This document shows, piece by piece, positions 54,270-63,040 of a stretch of 64,000 bases of DNA. The notes beneath the pieces are model-generated. The model saw only the letters and a list, made by a program, of their open reading frames with translations, was not told the origin of the DNA and searched no databases. The first letter of the stretch is position 1. The number at the start of each line of letters is the position of its first letter. Source of the DNA: an uncultured Pseudomonadota bacterium (GTDB lineage Bacteria > Pseudomonadota > Gammaproteobacteria > Steroidobacterales > Steroidobacteraceae); the NCBI GenBank assembly GCA_963824395.1, contig CAWGPF010000004.1, forward strand, positions 220,872 to 284,871. Direction: 5' to 3'. The translations under genes and the position numbers were made by a program.

Positions 54270-55000
54270 TGAACGCTCTCTCTCGAAGGCAGATTGCTTG
54301 GACACGCTAAGCGGTGTCGGATTATCTGAAAGTTGCTCGTGCGTCGGCACAGGATCGCGTGGAAATGGCCGCCGTACGCCTCGATGTTCGAATCTAGCGT
54401 CTTGTGGCTAAGGGGACAATCTTTCAGAGGTCATTGCCCTGGCGCTTGCGGGATCTACCCGTCCACCGGGATTGTCGCCTGAACCCGCTTCTGGGCTGTC
54501 AGGTTCGGGAGGAGATCCGGCGTCCTTCCTCGCGGGCTCCCGATCTTGGGTGGCCCGGCGCTGCGTTTTGCACCGGTTGCTGCGCGGCCCTCCGCTCAGA
54601 TAGTAACGACATTTTCGCTGCGGGCACGGTGACGCTTGCGGACACACCACCCCCGGAAGTGAAGGCGCGGCGCAGTAACAAATTGGAATCAGTCCAGCGG
54701 TGTCCGGTCGGTGGCGACGCGAAGGCTCTGACGGCAGGCCCTACGCGAGCGCGATATCGTGCCCAGCCGGCCGAATCTCGGATTCCGACGCAGGCTCCCC
54801 ACTGTCACGAACACCAGTCCGATCTCACGGTACGCGCAGAATTTTCCGTCGTCGAGCCGAGTAAGCGCTGGCTGAGTTGACGTTATGTTTGTTGTGGTTC
54901 TCATGCCACGCGATGCCGTTGCTTTGGCTCAACCAACATGCTGAGATCGAGTCATTAAGCGCCCAGCCATGAACCGAGGCGCACTCTTGGGGTGGGGTAA

Positions 55001-56833
55001 ATGCGGTCGGATCTCAGGATCACTCGATATTTCTTGGTCGCCGCGTTGATCGCTGTCATGGCCGGTTGCGGTGGCGGCGGGGGTGATAGCACCACAGGCA
55101 CTACGACGACTCAGACCGGCCTCAGCGGCAGCTACACGGTCACGCCCACGACCCTAACGATCGCGGCAACAACGGCCGACGGCGCGCCGACTGGATCGGT
55201 GACGGTTACTCTGCAATTGCAAGGGGCTACGTCGACTACTGAGGTGTATGCCGTGGGCAGTTCGACCCACTCGGGAATCGACTCCCTTAGCTTCGCCGGC
55301 TCGGGGCCGGATACTGGCGTGCTGCAGGTGCTGTTCAAGGTACCTTCGGCTCTGGGGGCCGGCACCTATACGGACAGCATCACACTGCGGATGTGCTTCG
55401 ACACGGCATGCACGCAGCCCCTGTCAGGCGGCCCTGTCACGATCACCACGCATTACAGCATCACGGCAGTCCCGACCGTTTCTGTTGCCTCCACCACAGT
55501 GAACGTGTCGGCGACGACCGCAGACGCATCTGGCCCGGTGGACACGATACCGCTGAAAATCATGGACGGCCCGGCGGCCGGCGTGTACATAACGGCTACC
55601 AGCTCGACCACGGGCATCAAGTCTGTCACTGCGCCGTCGGGGCTGGTTCCCTCGGCGCAAGCCGCGGTTGCGGTCAATTTCGATAACCCGTCGCAGCTGG
55701 GGCAGGGCACCTACACCGATCAGGTGACGATCACCGTATGCGCCGACAGCAATTGCACGGCTCCGCTGAGCGGCAGCCCGCTGTTCCTGAATGTTTCTTA
55801 CACCGTGACGAGTCCGGCGCTCGCGGTGACGAGCCAGGTGGGGCTCAGCCACGATGTGATTGATGCCAAGTACAGTCGCGCACTGGACGCCATCGTGATG
55901 GTGTCGAGCTATCCGACGAACGCGCTATACCTTTATGACATCGCGACGCAGACGGAGTACGCCCAGCCCCTGAACAAGCTACCGACAGTGGTCACGGTCG
56001 GGCCGACCGGTCTGGACGCGGCGGTGGGGCATGATGCACTCATTACCTACGTGAACCTGTCCACGCTGAAGCAGGCGACACCGCCGGCGCCCGTACAGCT
56101 CAACGTAACGGCGCCCGTCTTCGATCTGGTACTGGACGGCCACGGCAACGTGCATGCGGTGCCAACGGTTGACCAGTGGGTGTACTTCCACTCGGTCAAC
56201 ATTGCGACCAATGTGGAGACGGTGGGCACAAGCGGATTGCTGTACGCAGGCAGCCACGCAAAGCTGCAGCCGGGGAGCACGTATATCTACACCGCTGACA
56301 ACGGTCTTGAGCCGAGCAGCATGCAGAAGTGGGACGTGAGCTCCGGATCGGCGGTATATCTCTACGAGATGTTTGGCGCTACCTATTCCGTGTGCGGCAA
56401 TCTCTGGTTCAGCGATGACACGGTGACGATCTACACGCCCTGCGGGAATGTGTTCCGGGCCGCGGCAACTCAGGCCCAGGACATGGCGTACTCTGGCCAG
56501 CTGGCGCTGATGCAGTCGCTCTATGGTAACCAGCTGGTTTCCGTCGACGAGTCCACGGCGGGCAAGGAAATACTCGGCGTCGAGGAGAGTCTCTTCAACT
56601 GCGGACCCAACGGAACGCCCGCAGACTGCCAGACCAATGTCGCGATCTACGACAGTACCTACCTCGGACTCAACGCGCTGTATTCACTCCCGAACGTGGC
56701 CCTGGCGGGTCAGTCGTACCCGCAGCGGGGACTGTTCGTCTTCCATAGTGCCGACGGCACACAGCGGTTCCTGATAAGCATGCTGTATGGAGAGCCGAAT
56801 CCGGCAACCCAGTACTACATCAGCAAGTTCTGA
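55001..56833 (+). CDS. lipoprotein with two tandem Cys-pair Ig-like repeats and a ~330-aa beta-rich (propeller-like) C-terminal domain
   Basis: Lipobox LIAVMAGCGGGGG. Repeats end GTYTDSITLRMCFDTACTQPLSGGPVTITTHYSIT and GTYTDQVTITVCADSNCTAPLSGSPLFLNVSYTVT. Confidence 0.7.
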   Translation: MRSDLRITRYFLVAALIAVMAGCGGGGGDSTTGTTTTQTGLSGSYTVTPTTLTIAATTADGAPTGSVTVTLQLQGATSTTEVYAVGSSTHSGIDSLSFAGSGPDTGVLQVLFKVPSALGAGTYTDSITLRMCFDTACTQPLSGGPVTITTHYSITAVPTVSVASTTVNVSATTADASGPVDTIPLKIMDGPAAGVYITATSSTTGIKSVTAPSGLVPSAQAAVAVNFDNPSQLGQGTYTDQVTITVCADSNCTAPLSGSPLFLNVSYTVTSPALAVTSQVGLSHDVIDAKYSRALDAIVMVSSYPTNALYLYDIATQTEYAQPLNKLPTVVTVGPTGLDAAVGHDALITYVNLSTLKQATPPAPVQLNVTAPVFDLVLDGHGNVHAVPTVDQWVYFHSVNIATNVETVGTSGLLYAGSHAKLQPGSTYIYTADNGLEPSSMQKWDVSSGSAVYLYEMFGATYSVCGNLWFSDDTVTIYTPCGNVFRAAATQAQDMAYSGQLALMQSLYGNQLVSVDESTAGKEILGVEESLFNCGPNGTPADCQTNVAIYDSTYLGLNALYSLPNVALAGQSYPQRGLFVFHSADGTQRFLISMLYGEPNPATQYYISKF

Positions 56834-57132
56834 GGCGGATCTGCGGTGTCCGGCAGCGCTATCCCCAAAAGGCTTATAAAACAGTCTGTTAGGTGAGCGC
56901 ACCGCAGCGCGGATCCCAGGGCACTAGACATATGGTGCTTCTGGCGCGATGCTGAACACAAGGGCATACCCGTTCGAAAGGCGGGGACGCAAAGCCACCG
57001 GTCTAAGGGCGGAAGCCTAAGACAGCGGGGTTGCCACTCCACACCCCGGGTGTGTGAGCGTGCAAGCTCGCCTGCCTTACATCTCTCGCTCTCCCGACCG
57101 TGACGCGGATGCTCGTTTCAGGGGAGAGCTTT

Positions 57133-58266
57133 ATGACATCGAGATTGGCAAAGTCCGCTGCGAACTCGGACCTCAGTTCAGTGCGTCCGCAGGCTGGCGC
57201 GGGCCGCTTCATGGTTACGCTCTGCACTTTGGACGCGGCGGTGTCCATTCGGCAGTCACAGTCGCCGCATCTACGGCCCTTCACCTTCTTCGTAAGTCGC
57301 GCGTACCAGGCGGACGGCACCGAGCGGCTTTATCTCAACATGGGATATTTCAACACGCTGGTCGATGCCGAGAGATGGGCGGAAACGACGCGACGGCAGT
57401 TTCCCGGTGCCTTCGCAACTATCGCAACGGGCGCGCCCTCGCAGGCCACCGGTCTAAAGACATCTTCATCGTCACCGCTCGGTTCTCACGCGGCAGCGCC
57501 CGGGAGCTGTGAGCCTGAAGCAGTCAAACTTCAATCTTTGACCGACAGCCAGGTCCTGAAGATCCTGGAAACGCGTGGTGACCCTACGGCTCGAGACGAT
57601 GCTGATGAAAGAAGCTTCGAGCAGATCGAGTTGCTTCGCCCCGACGACACGCTCACCCGGCGCGTCATCAGGGAGGCGGTCGCTGAGGATGCACCGGTTT
57701 GGTTTGCCGTGCAGCTTCAGTGGTCGGCGCAACCGATCGATCTGAGCACCGTGCGCTCGCTGCCCATCTTCACGTCGCACACGCTGTATGCGACTGAAAA
57801 ACGGCGTCACGGCCGCTCCCGCCATTTTCTGCGACTCGGATTCTTTGCAGACCCGATCTCCGCGAAGCAGATCGCCGTCCAGGTGCTCTCGACGTTCGAC
57901 TCTGCTGCCGTGGTGCCGGTCGTCGAGCCGGAGATCACGCGCGCACGCGAAGCCAGTACGGCACGTGCGATCCCGTATCTTGAGGAATCGCAGGTCGATC
58001 AGGATGGCGATTCCGGCAGCACGCAGGGAGCGCCGGTACCGGCCGCGCCGCCGGGTGTCGCGCGGCGTCGTGCCCGCGCAGGCGCCGAGACAGTTGAGGG
58101 GACACTCGAGGAGCCTGGCGAACAGGAGATATGGACCGAGTCAGACTTGCTGAATGAAAGCGGCGTTCGGCACCTGCGAGTCGAAAGACAGGACCACCAG
58201 TCGGGGCGCTGGAAGATCATCCGCCTGCGCGGTGATTTGCCGAACGAGGCGCAGTTACCGGCGTAA
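57133..58266 (+). CDS. hypothetical protein with two SPOR-like repeats (tentative)
   Basis: ATG 57133 follows ggggagag. The segments FMVTLCTL...LYLNMGYFNTLVDAERWAETTRRQFPGA and WFAVQLQWSA...FLRLGFFADPISAKQIAVQVLSTF resemble SPOR beta-alpha-beta-beta units. I see no signal peptide or TM. Confidence 0.55.
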   Translation: MTSRLAKSAANSDLSSVRPQAGAGRFMVTLCTLDAAVSIRQSQSPHLRPFTFFVSRAYQADGTERLYLNMGYFNTLVDAERWAETTRRQFPGAFATIATGAPSQATGLKTSSSSPLGSHAAAPGSCEPEAVKLQSLTDSQVLKILETRGDPTARDDADERSFEQIELLRPDDTLTRRVIREAVAEDAPVWFAVQLQWSAQPIDLSTVRSLPIFTSHTLYATEKRRHGRSRHFLRLGFFADPISAKQIAVQVLSTFDSAAVVPVVEPEITRAREASTARAIPYLEESQVDQDGDSGSTQGAPVPAAPPGVARRRARAGAETVEGTLEEPGEQEIWTESDLLNESGVRHLRVERQDHQSGRWKIIRLRGDLPNEAQLPA

Positions 58267-58529
58267 TTGGTTATCTCGACGAACGGTTTTTCGGACGTCG
58301 CAGTATCGTGACGAGGAGAGATTTGCGCGCGCCCGCGAAGAGCCGAAGGTGAGAAGGCCACGACGCCGCAAACCGAACCGGCAGGTTCCAAGAATACCGA
58401 ACCGAACTTAGTCAGTCGGGAAGTCGGGCTTCCAGAGTGTCGTTTTGTGACGCACACCCGTGAGACGGGACGGCTGGCGGGTTCACAGTTCCATGCTGGT
58501 CGATTTCCGTTGCAGGGGTTACCACTCCG

Positions 58530-60230
58530 ATGCTGCGCTGCCGCGTCCTGCTCCTGGCTGCTTTTCTGGCACCGTTTGTCACCGACTACGCAGTGGCGGC
58601 CGCTATTCCTGTCCCTGCGCCGCCCGAAGACGCCGCTGTCGGGGAGAGCGCCAGGGCGCTGCTGCTTAAAGGCGACCTGGCAGGATTTGATGCCCTGGCA
58701 ACAGCATTCCGCAATTCCCGGGAACGGACGGCATCGGGCAGCTGGAAGCTCGGGCTTGCGTACCTGAGCGTCGATCAGGACTGGTTCCCGTCGGCAGATC
58801 CCCGTTGGGAAAAGTTGCAGCAGGCCGCGGGCGCCTGGCTCGCCGCGCACCCCGACTCCCCGTCCGCGGTAGCCATAGAGGCGAGGATCCTTCGCGCTCA
58901 CGCATGGGCATTCCACGAGGGATCCGGGGACAGTGATCCCAAGTATCGACAGTTGATCGAGGAGGCGCGCCGGGTCCTCGATCAGCATCCGGACGCCAGG
59001 AATCAGGATCCGCAGTGGGACACGTTGCGCATCGCGATTGCGCGCGAGCAGGGCGCCGGCACGGACCAGATTCTGTCGATGGCCAAGGAGGCGCTCGAGC
59101 GCGAGGCTTACTACTATCCGCTGCACGAGGCGGTAACGAACAAGCTGATGCCGCGCTGGGGTGGCAGCCGGCAGGCGCTTGCACAGTATGCGCAGATGGC
59201 TCTGGCGTATTCTTCCAAGCAGGAAGGTCAGCAGGCCTACGCCCGCATTTATTACTACGTGCTGCGCAGCAACCGGGATGGTGATCCTGGCGTGGAGATG
59301 AGTGAGATGGGAGTCCAGTGGCCTCTGCTGGAGCAGGGTCTCGCCGACCTCGTGAAGGCCTACCCGAGTGTCTTCAATCAGGACATCCAGCGTGTAATCA
59401 CCTGCTTCACCGGGCGCGCGGGTGAGATGCGCGCCCTCGGGCGCCTCGATACGAAGAATTTCGTGCCTGTCGCCTGGTGGGATGAGGCCCGGTGGCGGCA
59501 GTCCTGCAATGACCTGGCATTCGAAGGCAAGTTCCAGCGCGACTCGCTGACGCATCTGGTGCGCAGCTACTCCGCGTTTCTTGGCAGCTTTGGCGATGTC
59601 TTCTGGGAGCGCCTGCGTTGGGCAGTTCTCGCCACATTCTTCCTGCTGGAGGGCGCGCTCGCACTGCTTGCCATGCTCTCGGACCGCTCAGTGACCTGGC
59701 CCGGGTCTCAGGGATTCAGCGAGAGCTTCAATCCGATGGCCTACCCGCGCAGCTACGCGGCGGCAGCGTCCCGCGATCCGAACTTCATTCGCTTGTCAGT
59801 GTGGATGATGCTCGGCGGGGGCGCGTGCACCTACGTGGTGGCCCACGGGGACACCCCGGACATGCTGGTGCATCAGATCGTGATGGCAGGATTCGTGATG
59901 CTGTCGGTCACCGGGGCGCTGATGATCGTCAGCCGCTTTACCGCCCGGGTGGTGCTCGAGCAGGACGGTGTGAGCGTACGCGCGCTCGTCGGCGGGGCCC
60001 GCATGAGTCGAGAGGACATTCTCGGCGTGCGCTATTACTCGCAGGTGAAGGGAGCCCCGCTGATCGAGCTCGTTGCCCGCGATTCCGCGGCAGCACCGCT
60101 ACGGCTGCCGCCGGTGAGATATGAGGACGGGCCTTTCCGGGTCTGGTTCAATTCTCTGCCGGCACTCGCTGTCCCGGTTGCGCATGAGGGCGCACTCTCC
60201 TTACCCCGGGCGGCGCCCAAGGCCCGCTGA
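58530..60230 (+). CDS. membrane protein: signal peptide + helical-repeat domain (DUF4034-like, tentative) + C-terminal TM region
   Basis: MLRCRVLLLAAFLAPFVTDYAVAAA; a helical domain with WLAAHPDSPSAVAIEARILRAHAWA and YYYPLHEAVTNKLMPRWGGS; TM segments around WAVLATFFLLEGALALLAML and MLVHQIVMAGFVMLSVTGALMIV. It is preferred over the antisense ORF 57999..59555. Confidence 0.65.
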   Translation: MLRCRVLLLAAFLAPFVTDYAVAAAIPVPAPPEDAAVGESARALLLKGDLAGFDALATAFRNSRERTASGSWKLGLAYLSVDQDWFPSADPRWEKLQQAAGAWLAAHPDSPSAVAIEARILRAHAWAFHEGSGDSDPKYRQLIEEARRVLDQHPDARNQDPQWDTLRIAIAREQGAGTDQILSMAKEALEREAYYYPLHEAVTNKLMPRWGGSRQALAQYAQMALAYSSKQEGQQAYARIYYYVLRSNRDGDPGVEMSEMGVQWPLLEQGLADLVKAYPSVFNQDIQRVITCFTGRAGEMRALGRLDTKNFVPVAWWDEARWRQSCNDLAFEGKFQRDSLTHLVRSYSAFLGSFGDVFWERLRWAVLATFFLLEGALALLAMLSDRSVTWPGSQGFSESFNPMAYPRSYAAAASRDPNFIRLSVWMMLGGGACTYVVAHGDTPDMLVHQIVMAGFVMLSVTGALMIVSRFTARVVLEQDGVSVRALVGGARMSREDILGVRYYSQVKGAPLIELVARDSAAAPLRLPPVRYEDGPFRVWFNSLPALAVPVAHEGALSLPRAAPKAR

Positions 60231-60425
60231 CCGAAGCTGGACGACCTTGACGGCCGCCCGGTCACCAGCGGAGAGGCACACCGCTGGCAACCGATACAAG
60301 ACATTGATTCGGCAGCCGGCGTCGTGGGGCACATTCAGTGCATCCACGCTTTGTCATGAATCCCCCGGGTCCTGGGGTGACCTGAGGGACAGCTCTCCCC
60401 GCGTCTGGCAGGATTGTGAGCATGT

Positions 60426-60441
60426 CATTACCGTGGTAATG
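60426..60441 (+). promoter_or_regulatory. palindromic operator upstream of the AbrB-type antitoxin
   Basis: Perfect dyad CATTACC-gt-GGTAATG ends 7 nt before ATG 60449. There is no SD between them, and GGTAAT could serve as a -10. Confidence 0.5.
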
Positions 60442-60448
60442 AACCAAC

Positions 60449-60709
60449 ATGGCAATAGCGAAGTCGAAACTTACCGCGCAGAGTCAAATCTCGGTACCGG
60501 CCGAAGTGCGCAAGACGCTCGGGGTCGGCCCCGGTTGCATCCTCGAGTGGGAGGAGCAGGGCGATCAGGTCGTGGTTCGCAAGGCGGGTCGGCACACTTC
60601 GGAAGAAGTGCATCAGGCCCTGTTTGGCCATCGGCAGTCGACTACCGCGCCTGCTGAGGTGAAGGACGGCATCCGAATGTATGTGCGCAAAGGGCATGCG
60701 CGCGATTGA
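60449..60709 (+). CDS. vapB: AbrB/SpoVT/MazE-fold antitoxin (VapB-like)
   Basis: AIAKSKLTAQSQISVPAEVRKTLGVGPGCILEWEEQGDQVVVRKAG is a typical swapped-hairpin AbrB domain. Confidence 0.8.
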   Translation: MAIAKSKLTAQSQISVPAEVRKTLGVGPGCILEWEEQGDQVVVRKAGRHTSEEVHQALFGHRQSTTAPAEVKDGIRMYVRKGHARD

Positions 60710-61078
60710 TACGAAGGTCCTGGTGTGGCTGATAGTGCGCGACGACGTGGAGCAAGTGCGCTCTGCGCACGACTTCATTTCGGGTGGGGCTTGGGGTAGC
60801 TCACCTGGTTCTCGCGGAGACCGTCTGGGTGCTTGACGCGGTCTACGAGCGCACTGCGGCGCAGATCGCGGCGGCTCTCGAGATGCCGCTGAACCAAACG
60901 GATCTCGCGGTGCAGGACACTGACGTGGTGATCTCTGCGCTTGAAGGATTCAGCATCGACCCGCGCTGGGCTTCTCTGACTGTCTGACGCTACAGATCGC
61001 GCGCAAGGCGGGTCACCTGCCGCTGGGTACGTTCGACAAGGACTTGGCAAAGCTGAAGGGGGCTCAGCGCGTTCGCTA
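60696..61078 (+). pseudogene. vapC: PIN-domain VapC toxin disrupted by two +1 frame changes
   Basis: Frame 0 from ATG 60696 reads MRAIDTKVLVWLIVRDD...FISGGAW and then reaches a stop. Frame +1 reads VAHLVLAETVWVLDAVYERTAAQIAAALEMPLNQTDLAVQDTDVVISALEGF and then a stop. Frame +2 reads FSDCLTLQIARKAGHLPLGTFDKDLAKLKGAQRVR and ends at stop 61078. Concatenated, these pieces give a full PIN domain. The first shift lies in the G-run tggggta near 60790. Confidence 0.7.
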
Positions 61079-61300
61079 GCCGTGCCGCGATTGATCGCAG
61101 ACCTTCCAGGCAATCCGGCCAGTGGAGGCGAGTTCGGGAGCGTTTGGGACAGGCCGGGCTGACCGCGGCACCCTCGCGCACCTAAGGCCTTGAATATAAG
61201 AGGCCGGGCACGCAGTTCCAGGCTGAGCGGAAGCGCGCAGAATTACGACCAAACGTGTTAACCTATTGAATTAAGAACTAAAAAACTTCCAGCGGGGCGG

Positions 61301-63040
61301 TTGGTGGCAGATATATTCGTCTCTTACTCCCGGGCGGATAAGGCGCGCGTCGCGCCCCTGGTCGCGGCATTCGAGGCGCAGGGCTGGTCGGTCTGGTGGG
61401 ACCCGGAAATCACTCCGGGTGATGAGTTCGACAAGCTCATCGGGGCGGAACTGGAGGCCGCGCGCGCCGTGGTAGTGGTCTGGACCCGCGCGTCGGTGGA
61501 TTCGCGCTGGGTGAAGGGCGAGGCCCGCGACGCCGCCGACCGCGAGATCCTGGTGCCGGTGCGCTTTGAGAACGCGCGTTTGCCGATCGACGTGCGCTCC
61601 ATCCATACGACGGAGATGGACGGCTGGGGCGGAAGCCGAGACAGCGCTCCGTTCCAGGCTCTGTGTGCCGCACTCGAGACGAAACTCAGGCGCTCCGAGC
61701 CCAAGGTAGTGACAGCGCCGAAGGATGAGCGCACGGCGGTATCCATCTGCGTCCTCCCCTTCAGCAACATGAGCGGGGATCCGGAGCAGGAATACTTCAG
61801 CGACGGGATCACCGAGGACATCATCACCGACTTAGGCAAGGTATCGGCGCTGTCGGTGGTTTCGCGCAACACGGCCTTTTCGTTCAAGGGTTCCTCGAGC
61901 GACATGGCGCGCATTGCGCGCCAGACCAAAGCCTCGTACATCCTGTTCGGCAGCGTCAGAAAAGCAGGGGCCCGCGTGCGCATTACCGCCCAGCTGGTGG
62001 CGACGGCTAACGATGCCCAGATCTGGGGCGAGCGCTACGACCGTGATCTGAACGATATCTTCGCGCTCCAGGACGAGATTTCAAAAGCAATCGTCGCAGC
62101 CCTACGCCTCACTCTGCTGCCCGAGGAAAAGAAGGCTCTCGAGCAGCGCTCCACCTCCAGCAGCGAGGCGTACAAACTCTACCTGATGGCGCGCCAGTTC
62201 TGGCTGATGGACAACGAACGCAATAACGAGATCGTGGTGCGTATATGCCGCCGGGTGGTTGAGATCGATCCGAAGTATGCGCAGGCGTGGGCAACGCTGG
62301 CGCTCGCACAATGGAACATGTTCTGGCTGAGCGATTCAGGGGACGACGGGGAGAGCGCTGCCCAGACTGCATTGAGGCTCGACCCCCACCTCGCCGATGC
62401 CCATGCGGCAATGGCGGCAGCTTTGCGTGCCAAGGGACTATACGAGAAGGGAATCGAGGCGTGCCGCGAGGCTCTGCGACTTGAGCCGGGCTCGTATGTC
62501 GCGAACCGGATCGCCGGACTGAACTACATGGGCCTGCGGCGCTACGAAGAGGCCGTCAAACATTTTGAAATCGCGGCCGCCGCGATGGAGTCGGACTTCA
62601 CGGCGTTCTCGTTCGTATCTCAGTGCTACAGGGCTCTGGGGGATCCTGTACGCCAGCAGGCTGCTGCGCGCTCGACCCTGGGCCGGATCGAAAAGTTAGT
62701 TGCAACCGATCCGGGACACAGCCGGGCGATCGGCATAGGCGCGTGCATGCTGTCTGATCTGAATGAGGGTGAGCGCGCGAAAGAGTGGGTGATCCGCGCC
62801 CGGCTGGTAGACCCGGAAAACATCAATCTTCATTACAACCTCGCGTGCGCAATGGCGGCGCTAAAAGAGGTTGATATGGCACTCGACACCCTCGCCGAGA
62901 TTGCCGATAACCTGTCGCCAGGCATGGTGAGCTGGCTGGAGTCCGATAACGACTTTGACTTGATCCGCGACGAGCCGCGATTCATAAGCATAGTGGGGCA
63001 GGTGAAGGCACGGCTGGCGAAGGCGCGCCGGCCCTCATAA
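61301..63040 (+). CDS. TIR-domain protein fused to a TolB-N-like module and TPR repeats (no TM)
   Basis: aa 1-125: ADIFVSYSRADK, VVVVWTRASVDSRWVKGEA (Glu74) and ILVPVRFE indicate a TIR_2-like domain. aa ~148-268: SICVLPFSNMSGDPEQEYFSDGITEDIITDL...GSVRKAGARVRITAQL...IWGERYDRDLNDIFALQDEI. aa ~280-579: TPR-like helical repeats. The start is TTG 61301 or GTG 61304. Confidence 0.85.
   Translation: MVADIFVSYSRADKARVAPLVAAFEAQGWSVWWDPEITPGDEFDKLIGAELEAARAVVVVWTRASVDSRWVKGEARDAADREILVPVRFENARLPIDVRSIHTTEMDGWGGSRDSAPFQALCAALETKLRRSEPKVVTAPKDERTAVSICVLPFSNMSGDPEQEYFSDGITEDIITDLGKVSALSVVSRNTAFSFKGSSSDMARIARQTKASYILFGSVRKAGARVRITAQLVATANDAQIWGERYDRDLNDIFALQDEISKAIVAALRLTLLPEEKKALEQRSTSSSEAYKLYLMARQFWLMDNERNNEIVVRICRRVVEIDPKYAQAWATLALAQWNMFWLSDSGDDGESAAQTALRLDPHLADAHAAMAAALRAKGLYEKGIEACREALRLEPGSYVANRIAGLNYMGLRRYEEAVKHFEIAAAAMESDFTAFSFVSQCYRALGDPVRQQAAARSTLGRIEKLVATDPGHSRAIGIGACMLSDLNEGERAKEWVIRARLVDPENINLHYNLACAMAALKEVDMALDTLAEIADNLSPGMVSWLESDNDFDLIRDEPRFISIVGQVKARLAKARRPS

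Follow-up and report, generated by a model that had tools for sequence, protein, structure and literature searches.

A TIR domain fused to a CadC-type sensor in an uncultured Steroidobacteraceae bacterium: a candidate one-component signalling effector

SARM1 and C. elegans TIR-1 keep a TIR NADase under the control of a helical-repeat regulatory domain; the enzyme needs TIR self-association, and the proteins oligomerise via SAM. The bacterial TIR proteins of the AbTir, PdTIR and 7UXR group carry the TIR domain at the C-terminus, paired with coiled-coil N-terminal regions. TIR-II of E. coli, a single-protein anti-phage system, joins TIR and tetratricopeptide repeats (TPRs); an active-site mutation in its TIR domain abolishes defence, and the system has been reported in Caudoviricetes, with an ATPase in ~30% of its members (PMC11350192). 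A related two-gene Tir/Tpr system has also been reported (bioRxiv 10.1101/2023.05.26.542521). Here we analyse a stretch of 64,000 nucleotides from an uncultured bacterium of the Steroidobacteraceae (GenBank assembly GCA_963824395.1, contig CAWGPF010000004.1, positions 220,872 to 284,871; hereafter the window), which encodes a protein with an N-terminal TIR domain, a CadC-type sensor and a TPR region (hereafter the TIR protein; Table 1). A preliminary description of this gene had proposed an NADase effector of defence or signalling.

We read the TIR protein as a cytoplasmic one-component sensor-effector that serves physiological or stress-responsive signalling or growth control rather than single-gene abortive infection, a judgement that we hold to be evenly balanced. 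It draws on a canonical TIR domain, a CadC-type sensor, membership in a superfamily with interchangeable outputs, strong constraint, and the absence of a partner gene and of any association with defence islands or phages at the loci and in the collections searched.

The TIR domain proposed in the preliminary description was borne out by a hidden Markov model search, in which residues 5-121 matched profile positions 1-121 of 122 of Pfam TIR_2 (PF13676; E 7.7e-22, 78.5 bits against a cutoff of 28). Since whole-chain Foldseek searches were swamped by generic TPR matches, TIR relatives were ranked by a sequence profile of this region against the PDB. The top matches were 7UXR (1.7e-10), PdTIR 3H16 (1.9e-9) and AbTir 7UWG/8G83 (~1e-7), with further matches to C. 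elegans TIR-1 and SARM1, to BtpA/TcpB (4C7M, 4LZP, 4LQC) and to a TIR-SAVED protein. The alignments with bacterial NAD-cleaving TIR structures take in the strands DxFxSY and WxD as well as the WxxxE motif, and W70-V-K-G-E74 (residues counted from TTG 61301, as in the preliminary description) falls onto WTNYE of AbTir (7UWG/8G83) and WVHKE of TIR-1/SARM1 (8P2M). The aligned glutamates are E208 of AbTir and E642 of SARM1, the established catalytic residues of these enzymes, and this alignment upholds the catalytic position earlier assigned to Glu74.

Glu74 is invariant in 28 close orthologues (70-95% identity) and is kept in all 22 diverse 50%-cluster representatives examined (32-54% identity). 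Among the genome-locus members it is present in 79 of 89, and the ten exceptions comprise seven proteins with another N-terminus (wHTH, that is winged helix-turn-helix, or membrane anchor) and three with frameshifted, mis-called or truncated N-termini; the residue is thus retained by every genuine TIR-bearing relative. The signature residues D4, F6, S8, Y9, W32, D34, G40, S68 and W70 are conserved as strongly as Glu74. The TIR domain is probably an NAD-cleaving enzyme with its catalytic motif intact; the NADase activity of the protein, its product and its ligand are inferred.

By profile the AbTir, PdTIR and 7UXR group contains the closest solved relatives (E 1.7e-10 to 6e-8), from which the TIR protein differs in its N-terminal TIR domain and CadC-type sensor. 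SARM1 and TIR-1 offer a functional analogy, with an alignment over residues 3-131 that includes the catalytic glutamate, but there the order is reversed (ARM-SAM-TIR) and the regulatory domains are not homologous. A non-enzymatic TIR domain that acts as a protein-protein scaffold and recruits partners on TPR engagement, like the animal TLR adaptors, would agree with the adaptor role that TIR domains can take, with TPRs as protein-interaction modules and with the lack of a linked product or receptor gene. We consider this unlikely, as the catalytic glutamate and its flanking W/S/R motif are invariant across relatives at 32-95% identity and the nearest solved structures belong to NAD-cleaving bacterial TIRs and SARM1/TIR-1 rather than to TLR adaptors. 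The profile matches to the BtpA/TcpB structures could also be taken to indicate a secreted virulence effector (BtpA/TcpB/TcpC-like) acting on eukaryotic host signalling. With free-living soil carriers that hold several paralogues per genome, no signal sequence in the TIR protein according to hydropathy, and no linked secretion genes, that role is highly improbable.

The TIR domain is connected to the rest of the protein by a linker in which residues 136-142 form the sole disordered stretch of the AlphaFold2 model, with a predicted local distance difference test (pLDDT) score below 50. The following module (VLPFxNxSxDPEQEYFSDGITEDII; residues ~147-270) is the best-conserved region of the protein. 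In the window protein it gives weak matches to NCBIfam CadC (1.8e-8) and the TolB N-terminus (5.9e-6) as well as to FlgO, and among 13 diverse members FlgO was matched in ten (best 2.1e-8), TolB_N in six (1.7e-5) and CadC_C1 in two, while a profile of the module against structures retrieved FlgO and PelC-like folds only marginally. The ~120-residue module recognised in the preliminary description is therefore real, its family matches being weak but consistent and its fold backed by a structural match to CadC. The TPR-like repeats described earlier were likewise confirmed, by several Pfam TPR families on residues ~310-540 and by TPR matches in the PDB.

A first AlphaFold2 model from 28 close orthologues resolved the middle module poorly (pLDDT 32-60) and was replaced by a second one from a 64-sequence alignment including distant relatives (pLDDT 93.1, predicted TM-score 0.77). 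Generic TPR matches dominated the Foldseek search with this confident model, and the best match other than these was the periplasmic sensor domain of E. coli CadC (3LY7/3LY8/3LY9/3LYA). The alignment of 3LY7 with residues ~147-460 has an E of 1.3e-7, a TM-score of 0.67 normalised to CadC and a root-mean-square deviation of 4.8 A, with ~316 of 322 residues aligned. On this structural match, the alpha/beta domain and the first TPR-like helices constitute a CadC-type sensor that is lengthened by more TPRs.

The TIR protein has the sensor of CadC but is not a member of the CadC family. Both share the sensor fold, the weak NCBIfam CadC similarity and an output domain placed N-terminal of the sensor. 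CadC, however, is a wHTH activator that is anchored in the membrane and senses in the periplasm, whereas the TIR protein lacks the wHTH and the membrane anchor, has a cytoplasmic sensor and carries extra TPRs. As the preliminary description had stated, there is no transmembrane segment in the 579 residues, the maximum 19-residue Kyte-Doolittle mean being 1.13.

That description missed the nature of the C-terminal 440 residues, which are a scaffold common to cyclases, wHTH regulators and kinases. They align with rhizobial adenylate/guanylate cyclase domain-containing proteins at 38-46% identity over 95-99% of their length, and 565 plasmid records match them. R. leguminosarum QIO49186.1 (624 residues) consists of Guanylate_cyc, TolB_N and TPR, the cyclase of a 611-residue Ensifer adhaerens open reading frame (ORF) meets the module at the same point as the TIR domain does, and an Aminobacter protein has a wHTH domain (Trans_reg_C) in its place; hydropathy shows no transmembrane segment in these Rhizobium, Ensifer and Aminobacter relatives. 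The rhizobial class III cyclases hence resemble the TIR protein in the C-terminal ~440 residues, the VLPFxNxSGDPEQ motif, the TPR end cap (kept also in the Ensifer homologue), the lack of a membrane segment and the joining point, and differ in carrying an N-terminal nucleotide cyclase instead of TIR. Within the window, a 911-residue Ser/Thr kinase protein (Table 1) is built on the sensor scaffold of the TIR protein with a membrane anchor added, a helix at residues ~395-415 that precedes the FlgO/TolB_N-like and TPR regions.

A search of 1.84 billion cluster representatives returned 27,345 matches at E<=1e-30 (50%-cluster representatives), and TIR was included in only ~30 of the best 150. Among 64 close representatives classified with Pfam, 31 carried TIR_2, 12 Trans_reg_C, seven Guanylate_cyc and five BTAD. 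TIR, wHTH and cyclase proteins are interleaved in a neighbour-joining tree of the sensor region, a rough tree without support values, and this interleaving suggests repeated swapping of outputs. That the scaffold also occurs on cyclases, wHTH regulators and kinases points to signal transduction. A literature search retrieved no study of the combined TIR, TolB_N-like and TPR architecture, or of the function of the cyclase relatives.

The cyclase relatives also account for the JGI name of most orthologues. Dozens of them are called 'adenylate cyclase', a misnaming that we attribute to annotations carried over via the C-terminal module, which genuine cyclases also possess. The Pfam matches of the TIR protein are limited to TIR_2 and TPRs, with no Guanylate_cyc domain, which refutes the identity behind the name and leaves it next to no probability. 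Family members are already deposited as 'TIR domain-containing protein'.

Two further forms of the scaffold were observed. Giant metagenomic proteins (P0121, 2837 residues; P0124, 2283 residues; P0122, 1843 residues) contain up to ten tandem TolB_N-like/TPR modules. A variant standing beside some TIR copies (L013 7446-9767, L023 7339-9333, L021 16942-18774, L069 945-2921 and L078 15669-17519) has an N-terminal hydrophobic region (RRKVFKVxxAYLVVAW...) followed by the TolB_N-like/TPR module, with no recognised output domain.

Relatives of the gene were located 256 times across the species-representative genomes, and our locus analyses cover the best 80 of these 256 loci, from 64 assemblies. Most carriers are soil Gammaproteobacteria of the Steroidobacterales and Lysobacterales, the latter including Pseudoxanthomonas daejeonensis, Agrilutibacter niabensis, Lysobacter niastensis and Rhodanobacter; some are Alphaproteobacteria (Caulobacteraceae, Marinicaulis). 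At least two copies were found in 17 of the 64 assemblies and at least six in one. Tandem arrays of four TIR/sensor paralogues were seen in Steroidobacteraceae and Rhodanobacter metagenome-assembled genomes (L040 6408-12533, L048 8081-14152), and at L029 (546-11767) four copies arose via inverted duplication of a 5.2-kb segment with a tandem pair. The TIR domain was matched in two of 72,556 plasmids, and the gene gave no DNA match in E. coli. Some lineages are collinear over 20 kb around the gene (L026/L032, L019/L030).

Over all pairs, mean identity is 72% for the TIR domain, 74% for the middle module, 46% for the TPR region and 25% for the linker. The high identity of TIR and module and the low identity of the TPRs mean that paralogues differ chiefly in the TPR region, while each orthologue is tightly constrained. 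Against L001, the closest locus, the ratio of nonsynonymous to synonymous substitution rates (dN/dS, omega) at an unsaturated dS of 0.41 is 0.040 for TIR, 0.009 for the middle module, 0.057 for the TPR region and 0.052 overall; omega of more distant pairs is ~0.1, with dS saturated. Between the window and L001 the TIR protein (96% identity) is more strongly conserved than the genes around it, with 93% for TauE, 90% for an aldehyde dehydrogenase and 68% for a 388-residue ORF. For L057, L059 and L041, dN/dS was unusable past residues ~305-347 due to frameshifts in those assemblies. These three orthologues (81-94% amino acid identity; gene at ~10001) have a frame broken after ~305-347 codons and represent pseudogenes or assembly indels; the gene of L081 is likewise fragmented in comparison with the near-identical L080.

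Clustering of all ORFs of the 80 loci revealed no conserved partner, the best non-self cluster being present in 11 loci. In agreement with the preliminary description, no ThsA/SIR2/SLOG, cyclase or STING partner adjoins the gene: none lies within ~3 kb, the part of the window that was scanned for them. The five distinct neighbourhoods with gene calls are metabolic or housekeeping in content, and the sampled contexts include DUF202/OCD/TauD with Band7/NfeD and a Liv ABC transporter, lptCAB-rpoN-hpf-rapZ with an insertion sequence (IS), AceK and oxidoreductases, and aldehyde dehydrogenase and hydrolases. According to PADLOC, no defence neighbour recurs in 148 flanking ORFs of 43 loci; the few matches are mostly to generic domains (ABC/AAA ATPases, adenosine deaminase, patatin). 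Over 79 genome loci, neither a conserved partner nor a recurring defence gene emerged, which weakens a reading as a defence gene. Within the same 148 ORFs, mad3 (best E 6.2e-53), mad8 and mad2 were matched in two to three, at no more than three of the 43 loci and not localised, and two rescans of guessed loci for these matches were negative. RIO1-domain proteins were encoded by three of the 148.

The TIR protein can be set apart from most of the named TIR systems. TIR-II resembles it in holding TIR and TPR in one polypeptide, and differs by description: the TIR protein lacks an ATPase motif and has a TolB_N-like domain that the TIR-II report does not mention (PMC11350192). TIR-II is reported in Caudoviricetes, whereas the family described here has no phage or E. 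coli match, an indirect indication against homology of the two. Thoeris ThsB shares a TIR domain with the catalytic glutamate and weak model similarity, far below the family cutoffs (PADLOC, E 5.6e-4 to 4.5e-3; Pfam ThsB_TIR in four relatives), but ThsB is a short, TIR-only protein, and a ThsA neighbour (SIR2/SLOG/Macro) is neither found within ~3 kb here nor recurrent in the 80 loci. The SAVED, STING or cNMP-binding fusions of CBASS and Pycsar effectors are absent, the C-terminus being TolB_N-like and TPR, and there is no CD-NTase neighbour. SPARTA is excluded by the absence of APAZ and short Argonaute from the protein and its neighbours. In contrast to Avs and other STAND sensors, the protein has no Walker A motif and no P-loop NTPase, and its central domain is a 125-residue TolB_N/FlgO-like fold. 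The claim of an architecture outside the named TIR systems thus stands for Thoeris, CBASS, Pycsar, TIR-STING and TIR-APAZ, and is tempered by the published TIR and TPR defence protein and by the large size of the family. We describe the TIR protein as a probable TIR effector under sensor control, set apart by the novelty of its sensor type and by a genomic behaviour that is unusual and resembles that of signalling genes.

Our proposal for how it works builds on the outputs with which the scaffold is combined. Each of these, whether wHTH domain, class III cyclase, Ser/Thr kinase or TIR NADase, is activated through dimerisation or higher-order self-association. The simplest role for a module common to them would be that of a switch for association, operated by a ligand or partner. 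We posit that the TPR/CadC-like module would bind a cytoplasmic ligand or partner protein, and that binding would shift how the protein self-associates and draw its TIR domains into contact. Adjoining TIR domains may then form a composite NAD+-cleaving site, whose output would be NAD+ consumption, an ADP-ribose-derived signal such as a cyclic ADP-ribose isomer, or both. Each paralogue would be tuned by its own TPR region. Sensor-gated TIR self-association, already suggested in the preliminary description, seems to us the most reasonable mechanism for the protein.

The same architecture could serve in single-gene abortive infection, where the TPR/CadC-like module would sense a phage protein or infection metabolite, the TIR domain would deplete NAD+ and thereby kill or halt the cell, and the arrays would represent phage specificities; such a course has been reported for TIR-II of E. 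coli and for sensors of the Avs type. Defence models match the protein weakly: PADLOC and NCBIfam match residues ~3-84, the TIR part only, at scores far below the family cutoffs (SAVED_TIR 3.8e-9, spanning residues 3-81; PDC-S66 4.5e-8; ThcB4 9.6e-9, 34.5 bits against a cutoff of 220). The canonical TIR domain with its invariant glutamate, the published single-protein TIR and TPR defence system (PMC11350192), the tandem arrays with divergent TPRs, the patchy distribution with gene-sized islands of conservation, and a toxin-antitoxin remnant and strain-specific insertion adjoining the gene in the window would all fit this possibility. Set against them are the lack of recurrent defence neighbours in the flanking ORFs and gene-called neighbourhoods, and the absence of relatives from 50,697 phage genomes (tblastn) and from IMG/VR contigs, though TIR-II is reported in phages. 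The TPR sensor is moreover under strong purifying selection, the scaffold is elsewhere found on transcription, cAMP and kinase outputs, and the protein has no STAND NTPase or Walker A motif. We therefore treat abortive infection as a possible but minority explanation. Of the effector first proposed, the fusion of TIR and sensor holds, while its defence setting is weakened by the lack of phage carriage and by the purifying selection on the sensor.

Several observations weigh against a role in routine signalling. Nearly all characterised bacterial TIR proteins function in anti-phage defence or virulence. The arrays of up to four paralogues, with a conserved TIR domain and divergent TPRs, resemble diversified immune receptors, and a single-protein TIR and TPR system, TIR-II, protects E. 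coli (PMC11350192). It is for these three reasons that the defence explanation keeps its weight. The taxonomy is patchy, with 61% protein identity between Gamma- and Alphaproteobacteria. Some other loci share only the ~1.8-kb gene, at an identity above that of the flanks (93.7% against 81-85% between A. niabensis strains), and an IS adjoins the gene at one locus; patchiness and gene-only conservation are features of accessory or mobile genes. The pairwise omega values are compatible with positive selection at a few TPR sites, and the sensor-region tree, as said, lacks support values.

Table 1. Features of the TIR protein gene and of other genes in the window (window coordinates)
Feature	Position	Strand	Basis and remarks
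TIR / CadC-type sensor protein gene	61301..63040	+	ORF list; 579 residues from TTG 61301; translation probably begins at GTG 61304
A/T-rich tract	61243..61290	+	Sequence; 5' of start codon; possible promoter or 5' untranslated region, unproven
TIR domain, residues 5-121, flavodoxin-like beta/alpha fold	61313..61663	+	Pfam TIR_2, PDB profile matches, AlphaFold2 pLDDT ~90
GAG codon, Glu74, putative catalytic glutamate of W70-V-K-G-E74	61520..61522	+	Sequence, alignment, conservation
Variable flexible linker, residues 126-146, TIR to sensor	61676..61738	+	Mean pairwise identity; AlphaFold2; hydropathy
TolB_N / FlgO / CadC_C1-like alpha/beta domain, residues 147-270	61739..62110	+	NCBIfam, Pfam, conservation, omega, CadC 3LY7 match
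TPR solenoid, residues 286-579	62156..63037	+	Pfam TPR families, PDB TPR matches; most divergent between paralogues
TPR end-of-group cap, residues 510-565	62828..62995	+	NCBIfam NF047558 TPR_END_plus, E 4.6e-15, 55.3 bits against cutoff 32
MazE/AbrB antitoxin	60449..60709	+	Pfam, E 1e-7
VapC-like PIN toxin, over three frames	60681/60696..61079	+	Stitched translation against Pfam PIN, 1.2e-7
Ser/Thr kinase with transmembrane helix, FlgO/TolB_N-like and TPR regions, 911 residues	40807..43542	-	
ORF of 610 residues	55001..56833	+	No Pfam/NCBIfam family
ORF of 388 residues	57100..58266	+	No Pfam/NCBIfam family
Membrane protein of 566 residues	58530..60230	+	No Pfam/NCBIfam family; weak bPH_6 match only

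The coordinates and length given for the ORF in the preliminary description are exact. The orthologue consensus begins MADIF, one codon downstream of TTG 61301, which makes GTG 61304 the probable real start. DNA similarity begins at 61224 with L001 and at 61255 with L057, so the A/T-rich tract travels with the gene. This tract, earlier called promoter-like, is thus real, but as a promoter it finds no backing in a sigma-70 scan 5' of the gene, which gave no consensus match.

The neighbours named in the preliminary description, an AbrB antitoxin and a broken PIN gene upstream and a permease downstream, were all confirmed, the first two by Pfam, the permease being of the TauE/SafE type. The antitoxin gene overlaps the start of the PIN gene (60449-61079, +). 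As the latter is readable only across three frames and its stitched translation matches PIN, it contains two frameshifts, which could reflect decay or long-read indel errors. Of the loci compared, only L001 has neighbours in common with the window, and the blocks 58266-61224 and 54350-56860 are window-specific insertions relative to it. The former block holds the 566-residue membrane protein, MazE and the PIN remnant, where L001 has an MFS transporter. The toxin-antitoxin patch, offered before as a clue to defence, is therefore a strain-specific insertion; a functional tie between it and the TIR gene was rejected, given its absence from L001 and all other loci. The TauE permease was rejected as a partner as well, being common to L001 only. 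The 610- and 566-residue ORFs are missing in L001.

Bacterial TIR enzymes have so far been read almost wholly as immune or virulence effectors. In the family described here, the TIR domain fills the slot in which sister proteins hold cyclase, DNA-binding or kinase domains, and the genes are chromosomally stable, multi-copy and constrained. The widespread name 'adenylate cyclase' proves to be mistaken for this family, whose carriers include cultured bacteria (Pseudoxanthomonas daejeonensis DSM 17801, Agrilutibacter niabensis KACC 11587 and Lysobacter niastensis). Should the protein prove to be anti-phage, it would add a CadC-like, NTPase-free type of sensor to the single-gene TIR defence systems. 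The family raises the question of routine bacterial signalling by TIR-made NAD+ derivatives or by regulated NAD+ consumption. We tentatively suggest that TIR may be an ordinary output domain here, through which paralogous sensors turn intracellular cues into NAD+-derived messengers or a controlled drawdown of NAD+, independent of defence and virulence. If so, the family would stand beside its cAMP-producing sister cyclases as a signalling branch based on NAD.

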